Source of the DNA: an uncultured Candidatus Saccharibacteria bacterium
GTDB lineage: Bacteria; Patescibacteriota; Minisyncoccia; Phycocordibacterales; JACOZG01
Reading direction: 5' to 3'
Length of the DNA: 46,677 bases
Assembly: GCA_964361825.1 (NCBI GenBank)
Contig: CAYICB010000006.1
Location: 1 to 46,677 of the forward strand
Part shown: positions 63 through 23,252 of the stretch, piece after piece
How the letters are laid out: every line of letters begins with the position of its first letter
Position numbering within the stretch: position 1 is the first letter of the stretch
Program-made: the position numbers and the translations under genes
Notes under the pieces: generated by a model
What the model was told of the DNA's origin: nothing
The model's input: only the letters and a program-made list of their open reading frames with translations
The model's database searches: none

Positions 63-1367
63 ATGACCCAAGGGGAAGGGGGAAAAGTGTGGGATGTGGC
101 GGTGATTGGCGGTGGGCCGGCGGGGATGATGGCGGCGGCGAGGGCGGCGGAGAGGGGGGCTAAGGTGATTTTGCTCGAGAAGAATGCGGGTCTCGGCAAG
201 AAGCTTCTCATTACCGGCGGCGGGCGTTGCAATGTGACCAATGCCGAGTTCGATAATCGCGCCTTGCTCGCGAAGTTTAAGGAGGCGGGCTCGCCTCGAT
301 CCGGCGGCACGGGCGAGTATCTGTTTTCCGCCTTCGCGCAATGGAGTGTGCGGGAGACGCTCGACTTTTTTCATGGTCGCAACATGCTCACTAAAGTGGA
401 GCCGGAACAGCGCGTTTTCCCGGTGTCAGATAAAGCCGAGTCGGTGTGGCAAGTGCTGGTGGATTATCTCGCGCAAGGCAAAGTAGCGGTGTGCACCGGC
501 GCAGAAGTGACGGGCTTCAAAGTTGAAGCTAAGAAAATTGTGGCGGTGAGGCTGAAGGATAAAACAGAAATTAAAGCCAGGTCTTTCATTCTCGCGACTG
601 GCGGCAAATCGCATCCCGAAACTGGTTCAACCGGCGAGGGTTTGGGCTGGCTTGCCGAGCTGGGCCACACCGTGGTGGAGCCGAGCGCGTCCTTGGTGCC
701 GCTTAAGGTGGGCGACGCGTGGGTCAAGCGCTTGCAAGGTGTGAGTTTGCAAAATATCAAAATTAGTTTGTATCAAAATGGCGTGAAGCAGGCGAGCCAG
801 TTGGCGCGCAAGAAAGGCAAAATTCTCTTTACTCACTTCGGCGTGAGCGGCCCAACCATTCTTAACCTTAGCCAAGAGGTCAGCGAACTCTTGAAGTACG
901 GCGAGGTGACGCTCGCGCTGGACCTTCTCCCTTCGCTCGACCAACCGGCCCCTGATCGCGAACTGCAAAAGCTGTTCCACGAGCACGGCAAGAAGAAATT
1001 TAAAAATGTGTTGAGCGAAATTATTCCCCCGGCTATCGCGCCAATCATTGCCGAACTTTCAGCCATTAATTTAGAAACCGATGGCAGTAATATAACGCGC
1101 GATGAGCGTTTGCGGCTCGTTAAATTAGTTAAAAGTTTGCCGATTCATATCACGGGTCTCTTGGGCGAAGATAAGGCCATCGTCACTTCCGGCGGCGTGA
1201 AGCTCGATGAAGTGAATTTCAAAACGATGTGTTCGCGCCTCTACCCCAACCTCTATCTTATCGGCGATGTGCTCAATATCAATCGCCCCAGCGGCGGCTA
1301 CTCGCTCCAACTCTGCTGGACCACCGGATATGTGGCGGGGAATAATGTGGGGGTGACTGGTAAGTAA
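63..1367 (+). CDS. NAD(P)/FAD-dependent oxidoreductase, HI0933/BaiN-like flavoprotein
   Basis: 434-aa ORF. N-terminal dinucleotide-binding VIGGGPAGMMAA followed by LLITGGGRCNVTN, typical of the HI0933/YhiN family. Confidence 0.85.
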   Translation: MTQGEGGKVWDVAVIGGGPAGMMAAARAAERGAKVILLEKNAGLGKKLLITGGGRCNVTNAEFDNRALLAKFKEAGSPRSGGTGEYLFSAFAQWSVRETLDFFHGRNMLTKVEPEQRVFPVSDKAESVWQVLVDYLAQGKVAVCTGAEVTGFKVEAKKIVAVRLKDKTEIKARSFILATGGKSHPETGSTGEGLGWLAELGHTVVEPSASLVPLKVGDAWVKRLQGVSLQNIKISLYQNGVKQASQLARKKGKILFTHFGVSGPTILNLSQEVSELLKYGEVTLALDLLPSLDQPAPDRELQKLFHEHGKKKFKNVLSEIIPPAIAPIIAELSAINLETDGSNITRDERLRLVKLVKSLPIHITGLLGEDKAIVTSGGVKLDEVNFKTMCSRLYPNLYLIGDVLNINRPSGGYSLQLCWTTGYVAGNNVGVTGK

Positions 1368-3052: not shown

Positions 3053-4657
3053 ATGATCTTGAAAGAAGAATTGGCCAAATTGGTAGATGGAGAATTAAGT
3101 GATAGTTCTCAAGAACTCCTGCGTTGTTCTACCGATGCGAGCGTGTTTGAGGTTAAGCCAGAATTGGTGGTTTATCCGCGCCATGCGGGTGATCTTAAGG
3201 CTTTGGTTAAGTTTGTGGCTAATGCCAAAATTGATCATCCGGCGCTTTCGCTTACGGCGCGCGCCGCTGGCACTTGTATGTCGGGCGGCGCGCTCAATCA
3301 ATCTATTATTTTAGATTTTACCAAACATTTTAATCACCTTGGCGCCGTTGAGCAAGAGCGAATTACCCTAGAACCCGGAGTTTATTATCGCGATTTGGAG
3401 AAAGTTACTTTGTCGGCCGGTCTTATTTTGCCTTCTTACACGGCGTCTAAAGAAATTTGCGCCGTGGGTGGGATGGTGGCCAATAATGCCGCCGGCGAAA
3501 AAACTTTAGCCTATGGGAGCACCGAGCGCTTTGTGGAGAGCCTCTCGGTAATTTTGGCTGATGGTGAGGAGTATCAATTTGGCAAATTAACTTCGGCTGA
3601 ACTCCAGCAAAAGTTAGCCCAAAATAATTATGAGGGCGAGATTTATCGTCAGGTCAAAAATTTGCTCGAAGAAAATCGGGCTCTTATCGCCCAAGCTAAA
3701 CCCAAAGTTTCCAAAAACTCGGCTGGTTATCTTATTTGGCATGTGCAACCAGAACCGCGTGGCCCCTTTGACCTCGCCCAGTTGATGGTGGGGGCGCAGG
3801 GGACTTTGGGCCTAATTTCTAAAATCACTTTGCGCTTGATGCCGGTTTTACCCGTGCGGCAATTGCTCGTCATTACGCTTGAGGATTTAGAAATTTTACC
3901 AGAAGTGGTGCGCTTGGTTTTGGCGGCTCGGCCGGAGAGTTTTGAGTGCTACGATCACTACACTTTTGCTTTGGCGGCTAAGTATTTGCCCGCCGCGGCT
4001 CAAGCCGTAATTACGCAGAACGAAACCAAGCTCACCTTGCTGGCCGAGTTTGCGGGTAATGATGAGGCGAGTGTGGCCGCGCCGCTTGAGGCCACGCGCG
4101 TGGCCTTGGCCGCGCTCAAACTCTCGCTTGATTTGCCGGCGAGCAATCAAGCTTTAAACTATTGGCAAATTAGGCGTTCCAGCTTTGCTTTACTCCGCGA
4201 GCATAATGAGGCCGGGCATCGCGTGGCGCCATTTATTGATGATGTGATTGTGTCGCCGGAACATTTGGCCAAATTTTTACCGCAATTTAATGAGATTTTG
4301 CAAAAGCACCACATGATTTACACCATCGCTGGCCACATCGGTAATGGCAATTTTCACCTCATCCCTTTGGTCAATCTTGAGAGCGAGCTTGGTCGCACCG
4401 ATTTGCTTAAAGTGGCGGAAGAAGTGTTCCAACTCACTTTCTCTTTTGGCGGTTCGATGGCGGGAGAACACAATGATGGGATTATTCGGACGCCATTTTT
4501 GGCCGCGATGTATGGCGAGGAGACGGTTCAGCTTTTTGCTAAAATCAAGCAGATTTTTGATCCGCAAAACATTTTTAATCCCGGCAAAAAAGTGGGCGGC
4601 ACGCTCGAATATGCTTTAGCTCACTTGTCGCACAGCAATACTTCACCCCACTTTTGA
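3053..4657 (+). CDS. FAD-binding oxidoreductase (GlcD / D-lactate dehydrogenase-like FAD-linked oxidase)
   Basis: 534 aa. FAD_binding_4-like N-terminal half (PRHAGDLKALVKF...ARAAGTCMSGGA...AVGGMVANNAAG). C-terminal FAD-oxidase_C-like segment (GGSMAGEHNDGIIR...IFDPQNIFNPGK). Confidence 0.85.
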   Translation: MILKEELAKLVDGELSDSSQELLRCSTDASVFEVKPELVVYPRHAGDLKALVKFVANAKIDHPALSLTARAAGTCMSGGALNQSIILDFTKHFNHLGAVEQERITLEPGVYYRDLEKVTLSAGLILPSYTASKEICAVGGMVANNAAGEKTLAYGSTERFVESLSVILADGEEYQFGKLTSAELQQKLAQNNYEGEIYRQVKNLLEENRALIAQAKPKVSKNSAGYLIWHVQPEPRGPFDLAQLMVGAQGTLGLISKITLRLMPVLPVRQLLVITLEDLEILPEVVRLVLAARPESFECYDHYTFALAAKYLPAAAQAVITQNETKLTLLAEFAGNDEASVAAPLEATRVALAALKLSLDLPASNQALNYWQIRRSSFALLREHNEAGHRVAPFIDDVIVSPEHLAKFLPQFNEILQKHHMIYTIAGHIGNGNFHLIPLVNLESELGRTDLLKVAEEVFQLTFSFGGSMAGEHNDGIIRTPFLAAMYGEETVQLFAKIKQIFDPQNIFNPGKKVGGTLEYALAHLSHSNTSPHF

Positions 4658-7061: not shown

Positions 7062-9467
7062 ATGAAACCCGTCCTCACCTTTGGTACCGCTCTCCTTGGT
7101 GTGGCTTTTCTTCTTACGCTCCATCAAGCTCTACCGCAAACTGATCTCACGGCCGCCGTTAAACCTCCCACGATCAACAGCAATAAGATTAGTACTCCAG
7201 ATAATCAACCGCTCTTTCCTAGCAATCAACCCTCGCTCACCCCCGATGCTAATCCCTGTCTCAATAACACTCCACCTAATCCCGTCATCACCGCTCCCAC
7301 CACCGCTAATCTTAATGAAACCATCTCCTTCTCGGCCATCAACTCCACCGACAATGGCCAAATCACCAATTACAGCTGGAACTTCGGTGACAACTCTACC
7401 GCCACTGGCCTCACCACCACTCACTCATATACCACCGCCGGCACCTATGTGCTCACCCTCACTCTGACCGATAACTGCAATGCGACCAGTCAAGCCACGG
7501 TACCCATCACCATCTCGGCTCCACCGGCTTGTATCAATCCTAATCCCAATAATCCCAATCAACCTGTCGCTAATGGTGGTCCAGATCGCACTGGCTCCCT
7601 TAACCAACCCCTCACCTTCGATGGCTCCCTTTCTTGTGATCCCCTTGGTCAAGCTTTGGAATACTGGTGGAATGCTGGCACTAACCCACCCCAATCTACT
7701 GGTTGGCAAGCTAGCCCTACTACTAACTTCATTTACCCCAGCATTGGTGAATATCTAACCAGACTCTGGGTGCGAAGAGCCGGTGACCAATCCTCAATGT
7801 CTGTAGCCGACAATGTGACTGTTAATATCGACGAAGAGCAAATGAACTGCACCGGCAACGACGCTCCCATCGCCAATGCGGGCACTGCTCCCACCTTAGA
7901 CATTAACCAAACCCATACCTTCATCGCCACCGGCTCCAGTGATCCCGAAGGTGATCCCTTAACCTATCATTGGAACTTTGGCGATGGCAGTACCGCCACC
8001 GGCTTCTCTGCTCCCCATGCCTATGCTGAGCAAGGAACCTATACCGTCACCTTAACCGTCACTGACCCCTGTGGAGGAGGCGCCACAGACTCCTTAAGCG
8101 TCAATGTCATCAATCAAAGCCTTGCTGACTTACTCATTCCTCGCATTCAAGTCCTTAAACTAACTCATGTTGATCTCAACACCACTCCACCCACCGAAAC
8201 TTGGGTTCCAATTGATCTCGAACCAACAGAAGTCGACGGTGACCCAGTAGAAGAGATTGAACTCGGCTTAAGAGTTAAATTTGACGCTTCTGCTTCAGAC
8301 TATGCCACCGCCTTCCTCTGGAACTTTGGTGAAGATTATGGCAGTGGAGCCCAAACCATCCACGCCTTCAATGAACCCGGCGAACACCATGTCACCCTCA
8401 CGATTTACAATCAAGGATTGTGTGGGCCTTGTGGCCAAAGTGTGGGGGTGACGGTGCACTACGCCGAGGGGATGAAATTGCTTTCTTATTCAACTCCGCA
8501 ACTTCAGCCGGTTCGACCAATGACCTATGCAATCGGCGGGAATCGACTTTGGAGCGTCGCGGGTCTTGGTTTCCTAGGAACGGTCGATTTGACTGATCTA
8601 AGCAACCTAGGAGCATTTCAGGTGGTCTTACCGGAGAATTCGATTGGTGATTCCATCGACATGTCGGCTAGCGAACAGTGGGTAGCAGTTTGCAGGGGGC
8701 AATACTCGAACGGAACGAGTAGCGTGCAGTTGTATCCGGCCGACCCGCAAGCGTTTTTTCTGGTGGCGGAAATCACCGGCGGCATGTTATTGAACGGCGA
8801 CGCACCGTTTTCGGTCGAAGTTCGCGGTGACAGGCTATTTGTCGCCGGATCGCTCACGGGCAATGTCTATGTTTTCACAATCGCCAGTCCAAACGGAACC
8901 GTTCAACTGGAACAGGTTCTCAGTATTGGCGGCGGCCGGCGAAGACTTGCGCTATCGCAATCAGGCAAACTCGTCGCGACCAGTCCGACCGGGCAAGTTC
9001 ACATTTTTGATTTGGACGAGAACGGATCCGTCATAAACGGGTATCAGCCGATTCAGTTGGAAGTTGAAACCACGCTAATACTAGATCACAATATCTTCGG
9101 TAATACGCTTGCGATTAGGACTGGAGTGGATACGACGGCTGTGGTCAATGTTGACCAACTGGTCGCAGGTGTCATTGACTTCGCTTACATCCCCTATCAC
9201 TCGGATGACAGTCATTATACATACGCCATGTACTATTCGGATACACGGCGCATTCAGTTTGGGATTAACGGGGGTTTAGAGCATCGCAAGTACTCGCTGC
9301 TAAGTGACGACGGTGAGCCGTATTTGATGGAAAACCCCGTTTTTCCTGTTTTTGACCCGGGCAGACCACTACTTTTTCTTTCAAGTGATTCAGGGACGGA
9401 GTTAGAGGTCATTATCGTTCCAGACGGATCGCTTGGATTCGCCGCTGTCGATCCGGGGATACGATAG
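7062..9467 (+). CDS. secreted PKD-domain repeat protein with C-terminal beta-rich domain
   Basis: Signal peptide. At least three PKD-like repeats (NYSWNFGDNSTATG..HSYTTAGTYVLTLTLTDNCN; TYHWNFGDGSTATG..HAYAEQGTYTVTLTVTDPCG; FLWNFGEDYGSGAQTIHAFNEPGEHHVTLTIYN). Confidence 0.85.
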   Translation: MKPVLTFGTALLGVAFLLTLHQALPQTDLTAAVKPPTINSNKISTPDNQPLFPSNQPSLTPDANPCLNNTPPNPVITAPTTANLNETISFSAINSTDNGQITNYSWNFGDNSTATGLTTTHSYTTAGTYVLTLTLTDNCNATSQATVPITISAPPACINPNPNNPNQPVANGGPDRTGSLNQPLTFDGSLSCDPLGQALEYWWNAGTNPPQSTGWQASPTTNFIYPSIGEYLTRLWVRRAGDQSSMSVADNVTVNIDEEQMNCTGNDAPIANAGTAPTLDINQTHTFIATGSSDPEGDPLTYHWNFGDGSTATGFSAPHAYAEQGTYTVTLTVTDPCGGGATDSLSVNVINQSLADLLIPRIQVLKLTHVDLNTTPPTETWVPIDLEPTEVDGDPVEEIELGLRVKFDASASDYATAFLWNFGEDYGSGAQTIHAFNEPGEHHVTLTIYNQGLCGPCGQSVGVTVHYAEGMKLLSYSTPQLQPVRPMTYAIGGNRLWSVAGLGFLGTVDLTDLSNLGAFQVVLPENSIGDSIDMSASEQWVAVCRGQYSNGTSSVQLYPADPQAFFLVAEITGGMLLNGDAPFSVEVRGDRLFVAGSLTGNVYVFTIASPNGTVQLEQVLSIGGGRRRLALSQSGKLVATSPTGQVHIFDLDENGSVINGYQPIQLEVETTLILDHNIFGNTLAIRTGVDTTAVVNVDQLVAGVIDFAYIPYHSDDSHYTYAMYYSDTRRIQFGINGGLEHRKYSLLSDDGEPYLMENPVFPVFDPGRPLLFLSSDSGTELEVIIVPDGSLGFAAVDPGIR

Positions 9468-9468
9468 T

Positions 9469-9498
9469 AGCCTCCGGCAAGGGGACCCCTTGACATTG
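9469..9498. repeat. 30-bp repeat AGCCTCCGGCAAGGGGACCCCTTGACATTG (copy 2)
   Basis: Begins 2 nt after the PKD-gene stop. Lies between convergent genes. Confidence 0.9.
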
Positions 9499-9508
9499 GT
9501 AAGCTGTT

Positions 9509-9868
9509 TTACTTTTCCGTCTCCAGTTCTAAGCACACCGAGTTTAGGCAATAGCGTTTGCTGGTTTTGGTTGGACCATCTGGGAACACGTGGCCGAGGT
9601 GAGAATGGCAGTTGGCGCAACGGACTTCGGTGCGCGTCATTCCATGTGAAGAATCTTCAATAAACTCAACAGCGTCCGGCAAAGCTTGATCGAAGCTGGG
9701 CCAGCCAGTGCCAGAGTCAAACTTGGCATCAGAGGCAAACAGGGGATTCTCGCAAGCGGCGCACTTGTAAGTACCCGCGCGCTTTTCGTGCAACAGCGTG
9801 CCAGAGAACGGGGCCTCGGTTCCTCCTTGGCGCATCACGCGTTCTTGTTCCAGGGTCAACTTTTTCAT
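9509..9868 (-). CDS. msrB: peptide-methionine (R)-S-oxide reductase
   Basis: 119 aa from MKKLTLEQ. Two CxxC pairs (CAACENP, CANCHSHLGHVF) and catalytic RYCLNS. The longer ORF-track version runs into uppP and is not supported. Confidence 0.9.
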   Translation of the reverse strand: MKKLTLEQERVMRQGGTEAPFSGTLLHEKRAGTYKCAACENPLFASDAKFDSGTGWPSFDQALPDAVEFIEDSSHGMTRTEVRCANCHSHLGHVFPDGPTKTSKRYCLNSVCLELETEK

Positions 9869-9875
9869 TAAATTG

Positions 9876-9883
9876 ATTATACT
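9876..9883. promoter_or_regulatory. overlapping divergent -10 boxes (TATACT for uppP, TATAAT for msrB) in a 22-bp intergenic gap
   Basis: GATTATACTT: + strand TATACT at 9878-9883, 7 nt before ATG 9891. The - strand TATAAT (complement of 9876-9881) is 7 nt before ATG 9868. No SD on either side. Confidence 0.55.
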
Positions 9884-9890
9884 TAATAAA

Positions 9891-10649
9891 ATGACTTTTT
9901 TCCAAGCGGTAATTTTGGGGTTTATTGAGGGTTTAACCGAGTTTTTGCCGGTGTCTTCTACGGCGCACTTAATTTTAGCTACCAAATGGCTCGGCATAGC
10001 GGAAACCGATTTTGTCAAAAGTTTTGTGGTGGTGATCCAGTTTGGTGCCATTCTTGCGGTAATTTGGTTATATCGGAAGCGCTTATGGCAAGAGCCCGCG
10101 TTGTGGCGCCGGGCTTTAACCGCCTTTTTGCCCACGGCGATTATTGGCTTTTTACTTTACAAATTAATCAAAGGTTTTTTGTTTGAGAGCGAGCTGGTAA
10201 TTTTGCTCGCGCTCACTTTGGGCGGTTTAATTTTAATTGTGTTTGAACGCTGGCATCGGGCGGGGGAGCAAAACACCATTTCTGCCAAACAGTCGCTAAT
10301 CATTGGTGGCGCCCAAGCCCTCGCCGTTATTCCCGGAGTGTCGCGCGCCGCGGCCACGATTGTGGGCGGGCTCGCCCTCGGCCTCTCGCGGCGCGCCATC
10401 GTCGAATTTTCTTTTATTTTGGCCATTCCCACGATGCTGGCCGCCACTAGCTACGATTTGTGGCAAAGCGGCGCTAATTTTGCTCCCGACGATTGGTTTT
10501 TGCTTTTGGTGGGTTTAATCACCGCTTTTATTTCGGCACTGATTGGGATTAAGTTTTTCTTGCGCCTCATTGAGCGCTGGTCTTTTGTGGCCTTTGGTCT
10601 TTATCGGATTTTATTTGCTGGCTTGGTTTATCTTTGGCTCGCGCTTTAG
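9891..10649 (+). CDS. uppP: undecaprenyl-diphosphate phosphatase
   Basis: MTFFQAVILGFIEGLTEFLPVSSTAHL and PGVSRAAATI are BacA/UppP signatures. Confidence 0.9.
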   Translation: MTFFQAVILGFIEGLTEFLPVSSTAHLILATKWLGIAETDFVKSFVVVIQFGAILAVIWLYRKRLWQEPALWRRALTAFLPTAIIGFLLYKLIKGFLFESELVILLALTLGGLILIVFERWHRAGEQNTISAKQSLIIGGAQALAVIPGVSRAAATIVGGLALGLSRRAIVEFSFILAIPTMLAATSYDLWQSGANFAPDDWFLLLVGLITAFISALIGIKFFLRLIERWSFVAFGLYRILFAGLVYLWLAL

Positions 10650-11248: not shown

Positions 11249-11277
11249 TTGACAGACATTCTTAAATATGCTACGAT
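11249..11277 (+). promoter_or_regulatory. promoter TTGACA-N17-TACGAT with TGc extension
   Basis: Read directly upstream of the 11305 ORF. Confidence 0.6.
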
Positions 11278-18106: not shown

Positions 18107-18203
18107 CACTAACTCTCCTGTTTTTTCGAAGAACTTCCACCTTGAGGCTGGGGCCACGCGGCCACCAGTCCATCCTCGGTAACCCTATCAGCTTGGGCAA
18201 TAT

Positions 18204-18232
18204 TTGTCAAGTCTTGGGCAATTTGCTATGAT
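18204..18232 (+). promoter_or_regulatory. trpS promoter TTGTCA-N17-TATGAT (TGc extended); its -35 overlaps a minus-strand TTGACA
   Basis: TTGTCAAGTC read directly. On the minus strand TTGACA-N17-TAGGGT faces the PEP-CTERM gene. Confidence 0.6.
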
Positions 18233-18245
18233 TTGGGGGTCAAAA

Positions 18246-19220
18246 ATGAATCAAGAACAGAAAATTTTACTTTCCGGCATTCAGCCCACGGGCGCGCCGC
18301 ATCTTGGCAATTATTTCGGCGCCATGCGGCAATTTGTTGAACTTCAGAACGAGTATCAGGCGCATATTATGATCGCCGATCTCCACGCGCTCACCACGGT
18401 GAAGGAGGCGAGTAAGTTGCGAGAAAATATTCTCAATCTCGCGATTGATTATTTGGCGATTGGTCTGGATCCAGAGAAGGTGGTGCTTTTTCGTCAATCG
18501 CAAGTGCCCGCGCACACCGAGCTCGCTTGGATTTTTAATTGTCTCGTCACGATGCCTTACCTCGAGCGCGCGCATGCTTATAAAGATGCCGAGCAGAAGG
18601 CCAAGGAGGTGAATGTGGGTCTTTTCGATTATCCGATTTTAATGGCGGCGGATATTCTTCTTTATGGTTCCGATGTGGTGCCGGTGGGGCAGGACCAGAA
18701 GCAACATGTGGAGATTGCGCGGGATGTAGCGGAAAAATTTAATCGAGTTTACAGCGAAGCTTTTAAACTGCCAGAAGCCCTTATTTTGCCCAATGTTGGC
18801 GTGGTGCCCGGTCTTGATGGTCGCAAGATGAGCAAGAGTTATGGCAACACTATTCCACTTTTTGCCGAGCCGGAGGAAATGAAAAAGCTCGTGATGAGTA
18901 TTAAGACTGACTCGAAGGGGGTGGAAGAAGCGAAGGATCCAGAAACTTGTAATGTATTTGCTTTGCACAAACTTTTTAGCGAAAACGATTTACCCGAACT
19001 CACCAAGCGGTATAAAGAAGGGGGGATTGGGTATGCGGAAGCGAAAGAGATTTTGTTTAACAATATGAATAATTATCTTGCGCCGTTACGGGAGAAACGA
19101 GCCGAAATTGCCAAGAACCCCGAGCATGTTCAAGAGATTTTGAAAGCCGGTGCCGAGAAAGCGCGCGCGGTCGCGAGCGAAAAGATGCAAAAAGTCCGAG
19201 AATTGGTAGGATTAAATTAA
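18246..19220 (+). CDS. trpS: tryptophan--tRNA ligase
   Basis: GIQPTGAPHLGNY (HIGH) and KMSKS at RKMSKSYGN. Start at MNQEQK. Confidence 0.92.
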   Translation: MNQEQKILLSGIQPTGAPHLGNYFGAMRQFVELQNEYQAHIMIADLHALTTVKEASKLRENILNLAIDYLAIGLDPEKVVLFRQSQVPAHTELAWIFNCLVTMPYLERAHAYKDAEQKAKEVNVGLFDYPILMAADILLYGSDVVPVGQDQKQHVEIARDVAEKFNRVYSEAFKLPEALILPNVGVVPGLDGRKMSKSYGNTIPLFAEPEEMKKLVMSIKTDSKGVEEAKDPETCNVFALHKLFSENDLPELTKRYKEGGIGYAEAKEILFNNMNNYLAPLREKRAEIAKNPEHVQEILKAGAEKARAVASEKMQKVRELVGLN

Positions 19221-20611
19221 TGCAGAGAATTTATACTAAAGACTTGGCGGCGCAGGTGGGTGAGGAAGTGACGCTTGCCGGTTGGGTGGATGTGCGGCGG
19301 GATCAGGGAAAGATGGTTTTTCTTGATTTGCGCGACATGACCGGCAAGGTGCAAATGGTCGCACTTCCTAGTCACGCCGAAGCCCTAGCGAAGGCGGACC
19401 GATTACGAACAGAATGGGTGATTGAAGTGCGCGGCAAGGTTAATAAGCGCCCGGAGAAAAATGTGAAGGCCGGTGTGATGAATGGTGATTTGGAAATAGA
19501 ACTTTTGGAAATTAAAATCTTGAATGAAGCCACTACGCCCGCGCTCGATATCTCCACCGACGGGCGCGAAGTGGGCGAGGAAACGCGGCTGAAATATCGT
19601 TACCTCGATCTGCGTCGGCCCCGATTGCAAAACAATCTTCGCTCGCGTCACGCGATTGTTAAACTGATTCGCGATCACCTTTCGGCGCAGAATTTTACGG
19701 AAGTCGAGACGCCGATTCTCACCAAGAGTACGCCCGAAGGCGCGCGCGATTATGTGGTGCCGTCGCGCCTCTACCAAGGAAAATTTTATGCTTTGCCGCA
19801 ATCGCCTCAGCAATATAAGCAACTTCTTATGGCTGCTGGCTTAGAGAAGTATTTCCAGATTGCCCGTTGCTTCCGCGATGAAGACACGCGAGGGGATAGG
19901 CAGCCCGAGTTTACCCAGCTCGACCTCGAGATGAGCTTTGTGATGCGCGAAGAGGTGATGGCGCTCAATGAAGAATTATTGATTAAAATTGTGGAGACTT
20001 TGTTTCCGGAGAAGAAAATTCAAACCAAACCTTTCCCGCGTTTGACCTATAAAGAAGCGATGGAAAAATACGGCACCGATCGACCAGATTTGCGAGAAGA
20101 TAAAGGAAATAAAGATTTGCTCGCTTTTTGTTGGGTCATAGATTTTCCGTTCTTCGAAAAAGCCGAAGACGGATCTTGGACCTTCACGCACAATCCTTTT
20201 TCCGCGCCACAGCCGGAGTATAAAGCGTGGCTCGAGAATAAAGAAAAAATTGGCGAGATTCTTACTAGTCAATACGATGTGGCGCTTAATGGCTTCGAGA
20301 TTGGCGGGGGGAGTATCCGGAACCACGAGCCAGAAGCGTTGCGGAAAGTGTTTGAAATTTTGGGTTACGAGTCAGAAAGAATCGAGAAAAATTTTGGTCA
20401 TATGCTCGCGGCGCTCGCTTCTGGTTGCCCGCCGCATGGTGGGATTGCTTGGGGCTTAGATCGGCTAGTAACCTTACTTTTGGGCGAACCGAATATCCGC
20501 GAAGTCATTGCCTTTCCCAAGACCGGCGAAGGCCGCGACCTCATGATGGACGCCCCGAGCGAGATTGAAGAGAAGCAACTCAAAGAACTCGGTTTAAATA
20601 TTAAAAAATAA
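19220..20611 (+). CDS. aspS: aspartate--tRNA ligase, bacterial-type core lacking the GAD insertion domain
   Basis: OB-fold N-terminus, QSPQQYKQLLM and FRDEDTRGDRQPEFTQLDLEMSF motifs, GGGSIR motif 3. TAATG overlap with trpS. 463 aa. Confidence 0.92.
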   Translation: MQRIYTKDLAAQVGEEVTLAGWVDVRRDQGKMVFLDLRDMTGKVQMVALPSHAEALAKADRLRTEWVIEVRGKVNKRPEKNVKAGVMNGDLEIELLEIKILNEATTPALDISTDGREVGEETRLKYRYLDLRRPRLQNNLRSRHAIVKLIRDHLSAQNFTEVETPILTKSTPEGARDYVVPSRLYQGKFYALPQSPQQYKQLLMAAGLEKYFQIARCFRDEDTRGDRQPEFTQLDLEMSFVMREEVMALNEELLIKIVETLFPEKKIQTKPFPRLTYKEAMEKYGTDRPDLREDKGNKDLLAFCWVIDFPFFEKAEDGSWTFTHNPFSAPQPEYKAWLENKEKIGEILTSQYDVALNGFEIGGGSIRNHEPEALRKVFEILGYESERIEKNFGHMLAALASGCPPHGGIAWGLDRLVTLLLGEPNIREVIAFPKTGEGRDLMMDAPSEIEEKQLKELGLNIKK

Positions 20612-20641
20612 AAACCGCTCGCGATGAAGCGAGACGGTTTG
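20612..20641. terminator. bidirectional terminator (stronger on the minus strand)
   Basis: AACCGCTCGC-GATGAA-GCGAGACGGTT with A/T tracts on both sides. Confidence 0.75.
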
Positions 20642-20669
20642 TGGTGGTGGGGTTGGGGTAAGTGATCAG

Positions 20670-20888
20670 TCAACTTAGACCGGCTGGATCGGATCCAAAC
20701 GAGACGGCAAACCAAGGAATGAAGGCCAGTATGGCCACAAGGATTACCCACTCGATGCAGGTCCAACCCCATCGTTCGTTTTTTGCGGGGCGGGTTGTTC
20801 GAACCACGACCACCCCTAGAGCCCAGATGACCCCCAAAAGAGCGAACCCAAAACCAAGAATTAGTAGGATTAATAAGATAAATTCCAT
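20670..20888 (-). CDS. small two-TM membrane protein (cassette 1)
   Basis: 72 aa. GAGGAG 8 nt before the ATG. Own promoter (20959-20988) and terminator. Confidence 0.6.
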   Translation of the reverse strand: MEFILLILLILGFGFALLGVIWALGVVVVRTTRPAKNERWGWTCIEWVILVAILAFIPWFAVSFGSDPAGLS

Positions 20889-20958
20889 GTTTACAACTCC
20901 TCAACCCAAGTTTTGAGCCACGCGCTCGCTACTTAGAATTGGTAACTTTTCTGCCACC

Positions 20959-20988
20959 AGCCTAGCACGAATGTGGCTATATTGTCAA
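20959..20988 (-). promoter_or_regulatory. minus-strand promoter TTGACA-N18-TGcTAGGCT (module copy A)
   Basis: Same architecture and partly identical sequence as 22001-22030 and 22454-22483. Confidence 0.65.
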
Positions 20989-21020
20989 GTCTCGCGGAGG
21001 GGTGAAAAAACGGTATAGTT
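20982..21020. repeat. 39-bp conserved block TTGTCAAGTCTCGCGGAGGGGTRAAAAAACGGTATAGTT (copy A)
   Basis: 38/39 identical to 22477-22515. Confidence 0.9.
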
Positions 21021-21047
21021 GGCAAAGGTTAAAAAGTAAGGTAGTAT
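21019..21047 (+). promoter_or_regulatory. promoter TTGGCA-N17-TAGTAT, 7 nt before ATG 21055
   Basis: Read directly. No SD. Confidence 0.5.
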
Positions 21048-21054
21048 TATTTTT

Positions 21055-21252
21055 ATGAAAAAAGGTGAAAAAGTTATCTCGGCTCCTGATTTGTCATTGC
21101 TCAATGAGCAACACGCAAATAAGTGGGTGGCTTTCTCGAGCGATTACAAAAAGATTGTCGCGGTGGGCGACAATCTCGCTGATGTGTCTGGCGATTCTCG
21201 AGTGGTGATGAAAGTTTTACCAAAACTTGGTTACGCACCAGTGGTAATTTAA
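21055..21252 (+). CDS. DUF5678-like small protein
   Basis: 65 aa. NKWVAFSSDYKKIVAVGDNLADV resembles the DUF5678 pattern (..KWVAI..g.vva.g.sl.ev) as I recall it. Confidence 0.55.
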   Translation: MKKGEKVISAPDLSLLNEQHANKWVAFSSDYKKIVAVGDNLADVSGDSRVVMKVLPKLGYAPVVI

Positions 21253-21256
21253 GCTG

Positions 21257-21466
21257 ATGAAGTTTCAGTATCAAGCGGCTTTAGGGGTTTCTGATACGCG
21301 TGGGCACATGGTTAAACGGCCGGTGCTAGAAGTTGAACTGATGGGGGTTAATGGGAAGAAAATCACCACCTTAGGAATTCTTGATTCTGGAGCTGACACC
21401 ACCACAATAAATCTTCAGTATGCCCACGCTTTGGGGATTAGGGTTGATGATAGTGACCAAAATTAA
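21257..21466 (+). CDS. retropepsin-like (clan AA) aspartic protease, N-terminal fragment
   Basis: LGILDSGADTTTINLQYAHALGI contains the D-S/T-G-A active-site motif. The ORF stops at TAA 21464-21466. Confidence 0.65.
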   Translation: MKFQYQAALGVSDTRGHMVKRPVLEVELMGVNGKKITTLGILDSGADTTTINLQYAHALGIRVDDSDQN

Positions 21467-21467
21467 T

Positions 21468-21596
21468 TTACCAGTTTGGTTTGTGGATAGCGAAAATGTT
21501 GATTTACTAATTGGCCAAGAGGTTTTTTTCGATCAACACAAAATTCGCTTCGAGAAAGATCACGATACGTTTGAGATTACAGAGGTGAGAAAGTAA
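21468..21596 (+). pseudogene. C-terminal remainder of the aspartic protease in the +1 frame
   Basis: LPVWFVDSENVDLLIGQEVFFDQHKIRFEKDHDTFEI matches the usual C-terminal ..d.LLG.d.l....i.fd..... segment of these proteases. No start codon of its own. Confidence 0.5.
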
Positions 21597-21647
21597 AAAA
21601 CAATAAACCCGCCTCACGACAGGTTTATTGTGCCTGTCAGGGCGGGT
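21595..21647 (-). terminator. terminator module copy A (minus strand), ends 1 nt after the cassette-2 stop
   Basis: ACCCGCC...GGCGGGT stem with inner GACAGG/CCTGTC. Minus strand followed by TTATTGTTTTTT. 21596-21621 is identical to 22162-22187. Confidence 0.8.
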
Positions 21648-21648
21648 A

Positions 21649-21933
21649 CTATAGGGTTGCAGAGACCACCAAGACAAACAAGATGGTGGAATTTAAAGCG
21701 AGGGAAACAATAATAATCCGAACAAAACCTTTTTGGCTCATTGTGTTGGCTGCGCCTAGGAGTGCCCCAAAAATAAAAGACACACCGAGACTTGAGCATA
21801 CCAGTGATCTCTGTACCCCGACCTTCTCAACTTCCTTGAGAAGTCCAAAGTGAACTAGTGTCAACACAATTCCTGTGATTAAAAAGATTGCCAGGGGGGC
21901 GGCATACACGATTAGTTTCTGTCTGGATAACAT
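21649..21933 (-). CDS. small three-TM membrane protein (cassette 2)
   Basis: 94 aa from MLSRQK. AAGGAG 6 nt before the ATG. The ORF-track ATG at 22017 lies upstream of the predicted -10 (22001-22006). Confidence 0.55.
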   Translation of the reverse strand: MLSRQKLIVYAAPLAIFLITGIVLTLVHFGLLKEVEKVGVQRSLVCSSLGVSFIFGALLGAANTMSQKGFVRIIIVSLALNSTILFVLVVSATL

Positions 21934-22000
21934 TTCAAACTCCTTATCTCGAGACTTTGTTTGGGTAGCGGTCTTCCGACGAGAAGGCCTTTCCGCGCAC

Positions 22001-22030
22001 AGCTTAGCATATTGCACACTATCTTGTCAA
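22001..22030 (-). promoter_or_regulatory. minus-strand promoter TTGACA-N18-TGcTAAGCT (module copy C)
   Basis: Read directly. Shares ATCTTGTCAAGTCTCGCGG with copy B. Confidence 0.6.
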
Positions 22031-22053
22031 GTCTCGCGGGCATTTTTCTTAAT

Positions 22054-22074
22054 GTGTGACATTCGGTGTCAAAC
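22054..22074. promoter_or_regulatory. 21-nt motif GTGTGACATTCGGTGTCAAAC (ACATYNRATGT family, degenerate copy)
   Basis: 16/21 match to 40166-40186. Overlapping palindrome AATGT-GTG-ACATT at 22051-22063. Confidence 0.4.
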
Positions 22075-22161
22075 AAAACCAACTCTATAGACAGAAGGAC
22101 CTCAAACCACAAGTGTAATACAATCCTAACGGTCGTGGGAAATGTGTTACGCCTTAATTTT

Positions 22162-22220
22162 AAAAACAATAAACCCGCCTCACGACACGACGGGCCTATT
22201 TCCGGTCGCTGCGGGCGGGT
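22162..22220 (-). terminator. terminator module copy B (minus strand), stem overlaps the cassette-3 stop codon
   Basis: ACCCGCC (22173-22179) pairs with GGCGGGT (22214-22220). Same 26-nt tail AAAAACAATAAACCCGCCTCACGACA as copy A. Confidence 0.75.
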
Positions 22221-22390
22221 CAGGTTGTCATTGCCCAGTAAAGGGCCGCGCCGCAAATTGTTCGTAACATTTTGCAGGCGAATACCCCGAACTGGCTGAC
22301 ACCTTCTTTGTATTCAATCCTCGCGATCTTTTCAGCGAAGACCATTATGGCTGCGTTCAGTAGAATTACTACAACAACCTTTGCGCTCAT
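22220..22390 (-). CDS. small membrane-associated protein (cassette 3)
   Basis: 56 aa from MSAKVVVVILLNAAIMVFA. GGGAGA 5 nt before the ATG. Promoter at 22454-22483. Confidence 0.45.
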   Translation of the reverse strand: MSAKVVVVILLNAAIMVFAEKIARIEYKEGVSQFGVFACKMLRTICGAALYWAMTT

Positions 22391-22453
22391 ACTTTCTCCC
22401 TTTCTGAAAATTGTTGAGTTGATCAAATGCGGCCAACCTGAAGTTCCGCCACC

Positions 22454-22483
22454 AGTCTAGCATTTATATTCTTATCTTGTCAA
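22454..22483 (-). promoter_or_regulatory. minus-strand promoter TTGACA-N18-TGcTAGACT (module copy B)
   Basis: Read directly. Confidence 0.65.
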
Positions 22484-22515
22484 GTCTCGCGGAGGGGTAA
22501 AAAAACGGTATAGTT
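22477..22515. repeat. 39-bp conserved block (copy B)
   Basis: 38/39 identical to 20982-21020. Its TATAGT lies 12 nt before the scpA ATG. Confidence 0.9.
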
Positions 22516-22526
22516 TGGGGGTAAAA

Positions 22527-23252
22527 ATGGAAAATGATTTTAAGGTTAAAGTGGGGGAATATGAGGGGCCGCTTCCGCTCATTTTGGATTTGATCGAAAA
22601 GCGCAAACTGCATGTGAGCGAAGTGGCGCTCGCGCAGGTGACGGATGATTATGTGGAATATCTTAAGCGATTTGATTCAACCATGTCGGCCATGGCCGAT
22701 TTTATTTTGGTGGCGGCGACCTTGATGCTGATTAAATCAGTGGCCCTGTTGCCCACCCTGCAACTTAATGAAGAAGAGAAGGCGAGTGTGGAGGAGCTCG
22801 AGCGCCGGCTCAAAATGTATCAAATTATTCGCGACGCTGTTCCCAGATTAAATGAAGCTTGGGGAGCGCAAACTATTTTCTTTAGGCAAGAAGCGAAGAA
22901 TGTTGAACCAGTTTTCACTGTGACCCCAGAAATTAGTTTGAGTAATTTGGCGCAAGCGATTAAGAGCTTGCTCCAAGCTTTGCCGGTGCCAGAGAAGCTC
23001 GCGCAGGTGGTGGTGAAGAAAGTGATTAGTTTGGAAGAAGTAATTACCGATCTTGCCTCGCGCGCCGAGCGGGCGCTTAACCTTAGCTTCCGCGATTTTG
23101 TGAAAGATAAAAAAGAGAAGGTTAATGTGATCGTGAGCTTCCTCGGGATGCTTGAGCTCGTGCGTCGGGGTTTGCTTGAGGTGCGGCAAGAGGCGCATTT
23201 CCGTGATATCCGCATGGAGTCGACACAAGCGGGGGTTCCCAGATATGATTAA
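22527..23252 (+). CDS. scpA: segregation and condensation protein A
   Basis: EYEGPLPLILDLIEKRKLHVSEVALAQVTDDY matches the ScpA N-terminus. Followed by scpB. Confidence 0.88.
   Translation: MENDFKVKVGEYEGPLPLILDLIEKRKLHVSEVALAQVTDDYVEYLKRFDSTMSAMADFILVAATLMLIKSVALLPTLQLNEEEKASVEELERRLKMYQIIRDAVPRLNEAWGAQTIFFRQEAKNVEPVFTVTPEISLSNLAQAIKSLLQALPVPEKLAQVVVKKVISLEEVITDLASRAERALNLSFRDFVKDKKEKVNVIVSFLGMLELVRRGLLEVRQEAHFRDIRMESTQAGVPRYD

Follow-up and report, generated by a model that had tools for sequence, protein, structure and literature searches.

Look-alike promoters and terminators around three small putative membrane-protein genes in the variable aspS–scpA gap of a groundwater Patescibacteria genome

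Three short open reading frames (ORFs), c1, c2 and c3, lie on the minus strand between aspS and scpA in contig CAYICB010000006.1, whose 46.7 kb, the whole stretch of DNA that was analysed, is called the window here. Each has what looks like the same promoter and a predicted terminator, and two of the terminators end in the same sequence. Why should three ORFs that do not resemble one another have control DNA in common? The first-pass annotation of this DNA saw in them a modular expression cassette duplicated or recombined around different small hydrophobic ORFs, and was reminded of type I toxin loci and of cassette arrays. The reading that we favour, with a probability of roughly 0.6, is a small lineage-specific accessory islet of three small-membrane-protein units with locally copied native control DNA. 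The ORFs, each with a Shine-Dalgarno sequence (SD), and the elements around them are:

20600–20640, minus strand: T1, predicted intrinsic terminator of c1 (hairpin 20612–20640 plus U-run; −15.7 kcal/mol, z −4.8; also found by terminator scan)
20670–20888, minus strand: c1, 72-aa small membrane protein, by hydropathy a predicted two-helix hairpin; SD GAGGAG
20889–20958, minus strand: c1 leader, with the SD GAGGAG and a small stem-loop upstream of it
20949–21020: left copy of a 72-nt direct repeat (repeat search), comprising Pc1 and a copy of a 39-bp block that lies upstream of scpA
20959–20988, minus strand: Pc1, putative promoter for c1, TTGACA-N15-TGC-TAGGCT
21596–21648, minus strand: T2, predicted intrinsic terminator of c2 (−24.1 kcal/mol, z −4.0); its 3' arm and U-tract make up a 26-nt tail, 21596–21621
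21649–21933, minus strand: c2, 94-aa orphan ORF with three predicted helices; SD AAGGAG
22001–22039, minus strand: Pc2, putative promoter, TTGACA-N15-TGC-TAAGCT with the shared upstream core CCGCGAGAC
22162–22221, minus strand: T3, predicted intrinsic terminator of c3 (−27.2 kcal/mol, z −3.1); its 26-nt tail is 22162–22187
22220–22390, minus strand: c3, 56-aa orphan ORF with a hydrophobic N-terminal helix; SD GGGAG
22444–22515: right copy of the 72-nt repeat, whose 39-bp part is native scpA upstream DNA (TATAGT, SD GGGGGT, ATG at 22527)
22454–22483, minus strand: Pc3, putative promoter for c3, TTGACA-N15-TGC-TAGACT

The repetition is far beyond chance. On the minus strand TTGACA-N15-TGCTARRCT occurs at 20959–20988, 22001–22030 and 22454–22483, the three places first reported, and a search of the window that tolerated up to 2 mismatches added none; shuffled sequences give an expectation of 0.25, and three matches were reached in 0/100 shuffles. 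The 21-nt promoter core, ATCTTGTCAAGTCTCGCGG, is present in 3 copies, one of them with 1 mismatch (0.01 expected from shuffles). The 72-nt direct repeat (20949–21020 and 22444–22515) is 85% identical, and within it the 39-bp part, 20982–21020 and 22477–22515, is identical at 38/39 positions. The 26-nt tails at 21596–21621 and 22162–22187 are 100% identical (0 expected from shuffles). Both of these matches, like the good SD before each ORF, had been described in the first-pass annotation and were found again at the same coordinates. Its further statement, that the three proteins show no mutual similarity, also held: the best E-values among c1–c3 were 1.7–4.4 in a four-sequence database, none resembles other content of the window, and their leaders have just ~12 nt in common. 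Duplication or recombination of modules around unrelated small hydrophobic ORFs is thus supported, each ORF resembling a transcription unit of its own.

Are these modules members of a genome-wide cassette system? Within the 46.7-kb window the repeat modules have no copies outside 20949–22515, and a 35-nt promoter-module pattern, checked as valid, had 0 matches in 185,579 representative genomes, so that no sign of such a system was seen. A dispersed repeat of the miniature inverted-repeat transposable element (MITE) or repetitive extragenic palindrome (REP) kind was rejected on the same lack of copies in the rest of the window and on the lack of terminal inverted repeats.

The look-alike promoters would have two sources, of which the first is the ordinary promoter form of the clade. 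Pc1–Pc3 have the features predicted for sigma-70-type promoters, namely −35 TTGACA, 17–18 nt spacing, TGn and −10 TAnnnT. Across the window TTG(A/T)CA-N16-19-TAnnnT has 6 sites, 6/6 with TG at the extended −10: Pc1, Pc2, Pc3, 11249 (+), the trpS promoter at 18204 (+) and its back-to-back partner at 18210 (−). The same form, including ATAG after the −35, precedes unrelated genes on three contigs from related genomes (L010, L012 and L013), and TTGACA-N14/15-TG(C)-TAnnnT is accordingly the predicted general promoter consensus of the clade. The earlier claim of one promoter design therefore stands as far as the pattern is present three times, and is weakened in that the design is largely this consensus, seen also at 11249, at 18204/18210 and at other Patescibacteria loci. 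A literature search on Patescibacteria promoters and transcription start sites, and on the DUF5678 family met below, returned nothing relevant.

The second source would be a native back-to-back promoter region between scpA and c1, copied locally. The first-pass annotation considered the 39-bp block, TTGTCAAGTCTCGCGGAGGGGTRAAAAAACGGTATAGTT, a possible shared regulator site facing the plus-strand genes. It is instead scpA's native upstream region, as judged from comparison with the sister species on contig L012 (ScpA 88% identical), where the counterpart, TTGTCAACCCTCGAATAGGTGGTGAAAAAAAGTTATAGTT, is ~80% identical and stands in the same place before scpA with the small genes absent. Because the block precedes scpA there without the small genes, the copy before the DUF5678 gene is a duplicate and does not speak for a regulator in common. 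The duplicated scpA-side block would give the minus-strand promoters an UP-like, T-rich upstream sequence.

Back-to-back promoters of this kind exist elsewhere in the window, and one pair is a distant fourth relative of the core, AGACTTGACA:

18182–18232, both strands: back-to-back promoters predicted to serve trpS (+) and a 248-aa gene (−)

The two have a common palindromic −35, TTGTCAA, which supplies TTGTCA to one strand and TTGACA to its complement, and either promoter has a −10 of its own at 17 nt. The same shared-palindrome layout (TTGTCAA/TTGACAA) recurs in L012 at 3989/3995 (3967–4017) and 7654/7660 (7632–7682). The plus-strand partner is without a −10 at the standard 16–18 nt in the copies at c1 and c3, where the only TATAGT lies 26 nt downstream of TTGTCA. 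Warman et al. (2021) reportedly found bidirectional bacterial promoters, with divergent transcription from symmetric elements. The islet's clade is similar in that divergent genes are served from a compact region with a palindromic element used on both strands, and differs in that the symmetric element is the −35 (TTGTCAA/TTGACAA) and not the −10. The consensus TTGACA-N14/15-TGc-TAnnnT, often back-to-back on a palindromic −35, could be put to use for this uncultured clade.

The terminators tell a similar story. In T1–T3 at most 1/200 shuffles fold as well, U-runs follow the hairpins, and the hairpin begins within ~30 nt of the stop codon in all three, at the stop codon itself for c2 and c3. 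T2 and T3 have the stem base and U-tract in common, and their hairpin tips differ yet still pair; T1 is unrelated to either. As T1 lies against the aspS stop codon, it probably terminates aspS as well.

Do the modules look functional? The two 72-nt copies mismatch at 8/15 positions of the promoter spacer and at 3/57 elsewhere (Fisher p = 6.5e-5). Among the window, a second strain contig (L003) and a contig from a separate study (L020), the Pc1 hexamers are constant while the spacer changes, and L013 likewise keeps them with a different spacer. With the differences between copies concentrated in the spacer and good folds for all three terminators, the modules look functional, as far as can be predicted. 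Variable spacers with fixed hexamers are what would be expected of working promoters under selection, possibly aided by gene conversion.

The favoured history can be put together from these parts. Within the variable aspS–scpA gap of a groundwater Patescibacteria (Candidate Phyla Radiation, CPR) genome related to Vogelbacteria/Paceibacteria, c1–c3 would be independent monocistronic units, each with a near-consensus extended −10 promoter, an unstructured SD leader of 60–70 nt and a strong intrinsic terminator, and each transcribed strongly and constitutively into a short mRNA of its own. The promoter region, and likewise one terminator, would have been copied during insertion of extra DNA, namely the DUF5678 gene, an aspartic-protease gene, c2 and c3, leaving the 72-bp direct repeat on either side of the insert. 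Selection for expression would have retained the upstream block, the −35, TGC and −10, and in the terminators the base and U-tract, while drift or replacement altered the ORFs, the hairpin tips and the promoter spacers. In its simplest form this history may have two steps: a single origin of the insert via recombination at the promoter block, and a later exchange or sweep of the insert among strains via homologous recombination.

Between Pc2 and T3 there is one further element that bears on the number of steps:

22113–22152: imperfect palindrome in the spacer between Pc2 and T3, folding as a hairpin on the plus strand

It is homologous to positions 118–164 of L013, which lie between a c1-like promoter and scpA. 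This match suggests that Pc2 and the spacer also come from an ancestral promoter region, and hence that insertion or duplication happened more than once. Over the match ~40 nt are kept, though other intergenic DNA is unalignable, and the inner-stem sequence differs with pairing retained. Candidate roles for the palindrome are operator, RNA hairpin and weak plus-strand terminator.

Might the three units instead descend from one ancestral cassette, duplicated in tandem, with the ORFs paralogues that diverged past recognition while their regulatory ends were kept? The layout and orientation are equal in all three, T2 and T3 have both stem base arms and the tail in common, and the c1 alleles of two strains show how far an ORF here can diverge, being 40% identical in amino acids and saturated though the strain promoters and leaders differ only by ~12%. 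Yet the products are 72, 94 and 56 aa long with unlike numbers of helices and no common motif, T1 is unrelated to T2 and T3, the leaders are alike over only ~12 nt, and a plus-strand two-gene unit stands between unit 1 and unit 2. We consider such a tandem origin unlikely.

How old is the islet? The locus was matched by exact-protein look-up on contigs from Hainich groundwater 0.1-um metagenomes (Hain_H43, Hain_H51), and annotations of ScpA relatives read Candidatus Vogelbacteria, Paceibacterota or Patescibacteria. The clade as a whole keeps the order trpS-aspS-scpA-scpB-dacA-mraY, but not the gap between aspS and scpA:

L007: gap of 50 nt
L009: gap filled by a 210-aa gene
L012 (sister species): gap of 200 nt without a membrane ORF
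L014 (ScpA 86% identical): RhuM and Fic/Doc-family gene at 3–704, abutting scpA
L015: gap of 166 nt
L017: gap containing an amidohydrolase gene

Because the gap in relatives ranges from 50 nt to a whole gene, the 1.9-kb stretch of the window is a lineage-specific islet. In L013 (ScpA 81% identical) a c1-like promoter, leader and start codon (ME...) lie directly upstream of scpA, where the contig stops, and therefore the pairing of c1 with scpA seems older than the remaining islet.

Other contents of this gap were seen in passing. The L014 gene, an accessory gene of a different type in the same hot spot, has its last base immediately before the scpA start codon. In another Hainich species (L010, 2490–4945, minus strand) three seemingly paralogous genes of 204–237 aa lie upstream of scpA, at least two of them with TTGACA-N14-TGC-TAAnnT in front, closely resembling Pc2. 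On L012, at 9800–9956 of the minus strand, TTGACA-16-TAGTTT with TGA forms a promoter opposite scpA. Some 130 nt lie downstream of it, closed by a U-run hairpin that serves as the end of aspS too, and the sole frame there has 20 codons and is non-hydrophobic. That unit may be a small RNA or the leftover of a lost small gene.

Divergence was measured feature by feature between the window and L003:

trpS and aspS: 6–8% (aspS 8%)
T1 and the c1 ORF: 41–50%
20889–21054, c1 leader, Pc1 with left block and short intergenic DNA: about 12%
21055–22515, DUF5678 gene to right block copy: 5 substitutions in 1461 nt (0.3%) and one 82-bp indel
scpA and scpB: 27 substitutions in 1277 nt, about 2%

The stretch 21055–22515 is less diverged than scpA/scpB (p = 1.7e-5). 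The low-divergence tract terminates with the right 72-bp repeat copy; the left copy (Pc1 and block, 20959–21020) lies just outside and is 11% diverged. The inner stretch being near-identical and its flanks 2–8% different, 21055–22515 therefore has a younger history.

The same mosaic can be read as the mark of a mobile unit, 21021–22515, that entered by a Campbell-type single crossover of a circular copy of the promoter block and then spread by homologous recombination between strains. The 72-bp direct repeats bracket the insert, the tract of 0.3% ends precisely at the right repeat within surroundings diverged by 2% (scpA/scpB), 8% (aspS) and 11% (left copy), and c1 has given way to an allele of deep divergence, the breakpoints lying at the SD and the aspS stop. 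Against mobility, no recombinase is called on L001, a near-identical contig extending ~7 kb on the scpA side and 6 kb on the aspS side, exact-protein look-ups of c1, c2, c3 and the DUF5678 protein return this locus alone, and a 1.5-kb low-divergence tract would equally be produced by ordinary homologous recombination or a local sweep. A mobile unit is doubtful, and we give it little weight. The favoured islet resembles known strain-variable islets and recombination tracts or sweeps in its conserved housekeeping flanks, its species-varying gap, its younger genealogy and its divergent c1 alleles; it differs in being very small (1.9 kb), in having no mobility genes and in being bracketed by copies of a resident promoter region.

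Alternatively, the conserved promoter and terminator modules could themselves be recombination handles, by which small membrane ORFs are swapped or added as ready-to-express cassettes with no dedicated integrase. We allow this only a slim chance. If it were true, the divergent c1 alleles bounded by regulatory DNA and the near-identical, repeat-bracketed islet would be two snapshots of the process. Integron cassette arrays offer a related comparison, with short unrelated ORFs in one orientation and a recurring sequence at cassette ends. Integron cassettes are normally promoterless, whereas the islet units carry their own promoters; the 3' element in the islet is a terminator hairpin with U-run and not attC, and there are three units at one chromosomal spot. 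An integron array was rejected, no integrase or recombinase being among the Pfam-annotated genes on L001 or L012 (no explicit attC model was run).

Do the units encode proteins? For c1 the answer, on comparison of alleles, is yes, and it is a genuine coding gene. The L003 allele is of equal length and gap-free with 40% amino acid identity. Synonymous differences per site (pS) are saturated at 0.77 and nonsynonymous ones (pN) stand at 0.39, while the synonymous divergence (dS) of the neighbours is 0.28 (aspS) and 0.09 (scpA). The divergent segment spans SD to aspS stop codon, and the adjoining promoter and leader differ merely by ~12%. By the sequence pattern, this is a pair of old alleles or a case of allelic replacement and not a fast local burst of mutation. 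Conservation as coding sequence, which the first-pass annotation asked for, is seen in c1; c2 and c3 are identical across all strain contigs compared. A full HMMER scan with c1 of 1.84 billion representatives returned c1 itself and the L003 allele, besides one spurious repeat protein (P0004), and a word-based homologue search returned the query alone. The single-sequence AlphaFold2 (AF2) model is a helical hairpin (predicted local confidence, pLDDT, 76). The leader is conserved in L003, L020 and L013, with two stem pairs kept via compensatory changes in L013; its fold by itself is non-significant (z −0.9).

For c2 and c3 the case is of another kind. Their frames are open exactly from SD to terminator (chance 1% and 7%), each is the best-scoring of three frames on its own strand, and their helices are membrane-spanning in length, all of which is consistent with translation into membrane peptides. 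The single-sequence AF2 model of c2 has three helices (pLDDT 69), and Foldseek against the PDB with the AF2 models gave no match below E = 3. With c2 a homologue search returned the query alone and a sequence search of the PDB nothing; the exact sequence of c3 was found at this locus only by exact-protein look-up, no homologue search having been made for c3. In the family searches proposed earlier (Pfam, PHROGs, PADLOC and NCBIfam) none of the three peptides had a credible match, the best being NCBIfam YkgR at E 0.032, far below cutoff. Small membrane proteins of model bacteria, such as those of E. coli under 100 aa of the YkgR type, are similar in having 1–3 helices and a monocistronic gene with its own promoter and terminator, and differ in that no sequence relation was found.

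Several points weigh against the favoured islet of small membrane proteins. Codon-usage scores of c1–c3 are ~0.0–0.07 per codon, where fragments of known genes score 0.30 ± 0.11. There are no homologues of c2 and no polymorphism in c2 or c3, whose coding case consists of the SD, the open frame and the hydrophobic helices. In L020, from a separate study (ERZ27275549), the L003-type allele of c1 at 438–557 (minus strand) has a nonsense change at codon 40, TGG to TGA, so that c1 is dispensable at least sometimes; the DUF5678 protein of that contig is identical to the window's. Sequence prediction underlies the promoters, the terminators and translation alike, and the search for copies in the source genome covers 46.7 kb. 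Lastly, the terminator tail is identical at 26/26 positions beside promoter spacers that are saturated, a combination hard to obtain from one old duplication and selection, and gene conversion or separate recombination events would be needed.

Could c2 or c3, or both, be untranslated, the units being short non-coding RNAs or relics? That c2 is without homologues and neither has family matches would agree with this, as would the codon-usage scores near zero and the L012 unit described above, where the same minus-strand promoter leads into ~130 nt with just a 20-codon, non-hydrophobic frame. The well-spaced SD with a frame open exactly to the terminator and the hydrophobic helices of membrane-spanning length argue for translation, and the frames have neither significant RNA structure nor an Rfam match. 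Untranslated units are, in our estimate, quite improbable.

Finally, are c1–c3 toxins? In E. coli the tandem ldr (ldrABCD/rdl), ibs/sib and zor/orz (zorO/orzO) loci are repeated type I toxin-antitoxin loci; the repeats at type I loci are paralogues, and a type I toxin is usually under about 60 aa with one transmembrane helix. The islet is like these in that small hydrophobic ORFs sit in adjacent units with duplicated promoter and terminator sequence, and c3, at only 56 aa with one strongly hydrophobic helix, would be of fitting size. Convergent plus-strand transcription from aspS and the DUF5678 operon could also yield antisense read-through. The type I idea of the first-pass annotation, taken here to mean c1–c3 as toxic small membrane peptides under antisense or divergent small RNAs, nevertheless met contrary evidence in several of its features. 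A sequence scan revealed no plus-strand promoter-like site opposite or beside c1–c3, and no inverted repeat in 20400–22800 ties a leader to a nearby region. The leaders are unstructured with exposed SDs (fold z −0.87, +0.28 and +2.09 for the three ORFs, those of c2 and c3 being non-significant like that of c1) and have no Rfam match. The islet ORFs are unrelated to each other; c1, with 72 aa and 2 helices, and c2, with 94 aa and 3 helices, make 2/3 of them larger than typical type I toxins; and c1 next to scpA reaches another species (L013). With no antisense or divergent small-RNA gene, no complementarity of leader to small RNA and no SD-occluding leader structure detected by scans and folds, a type I toxin-antitoxin locus was rejected, and toxin-like peptides under small RNAs are very improbable. 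A riboswitch or leader RNA was rejected as well, the leaders not being significantly structured and having no Rfam match; Rfam at gathering thresholds and scans for tRNA and tmRNA gave zero families and zero tRNAs in the whole window.

Most likely the peptides belong to the cell envelope as accessory membrane proteins, constitutively made, and they are probably not the toxins of toxin-antitoxin pairs. The two ancient alleles of c1 are a hint that something exposed or targeted varies from strain to strain, and make c1 a candidate for surface or envelope variation between strains. Under the favoured reading the islet would show how a very small CPR genome acquires and expresses accessory small membrane proteins at a variable intergenic spot, with promoters and terminators copied from sequences of its own. 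As an example of genome evolution on a small scale it is neat, and it is no new type of system.

Some further features deserve mention. At trpS (18227–18251) and scpA (22509–22529) the predicted −10 adjoins the SD in the arrangement TAT(G/A)(A/G)T-TTGGGGGT-(C/A)AAAA-ATG, 19/21 nt identical, with equivalents in L012 at about 4012–4033 and 9984–10003. If TATRRT is the −10, the trpS and scpA mRNAs would begin within or just past the SD with a leader of ~5–8 nt; either these mRNAs are nearly leaderless or a different promoter is in use. On L001, a low-coverage (5x) contig with 4 differing positions from the window across 14.8 kb, gene calling divides aspS into two (222 and 236 aa; 8854–10245), and the split is either a genuine disruptive mutation or an assembly error.

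The insert also carries two plus-strand genes:

21055–21252, plus strand: DUF5678-family gene, 65 aa (Pfam PF18929, E 3.8e-5, above the curated cutoff), first gene of the insert
21257–21596, plus strand: retropepsin-like aspartic protease gene (Pfam Asp_protease_2), broken by an 82-bp deletion at 21459/21460

The first has its own promoter-like site, TTGGCA-17-TAGTAT, at 21019–21047 (promoter scan). The junction of the deletion in the second has just ~2 nt of microhomology, and the break is also in the near-identical H43 contigs L001 and L002; an intact 140-aa protease is encoded in L003 (well H51; 2277–2699) and in L005 (652–1074). The DUF5678 and clan-AA aspartic protease pair (21055–21596 in the window, 2277–2901 in L003) has the look of a self-contained module. 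PADLOC gives no match for the DUF5678 protein, and for the intact protease only weak ones, to the B components of two phage-defence candidates, PDC-M08 and PDC-M52 (E 1e-4 to 6e-4).

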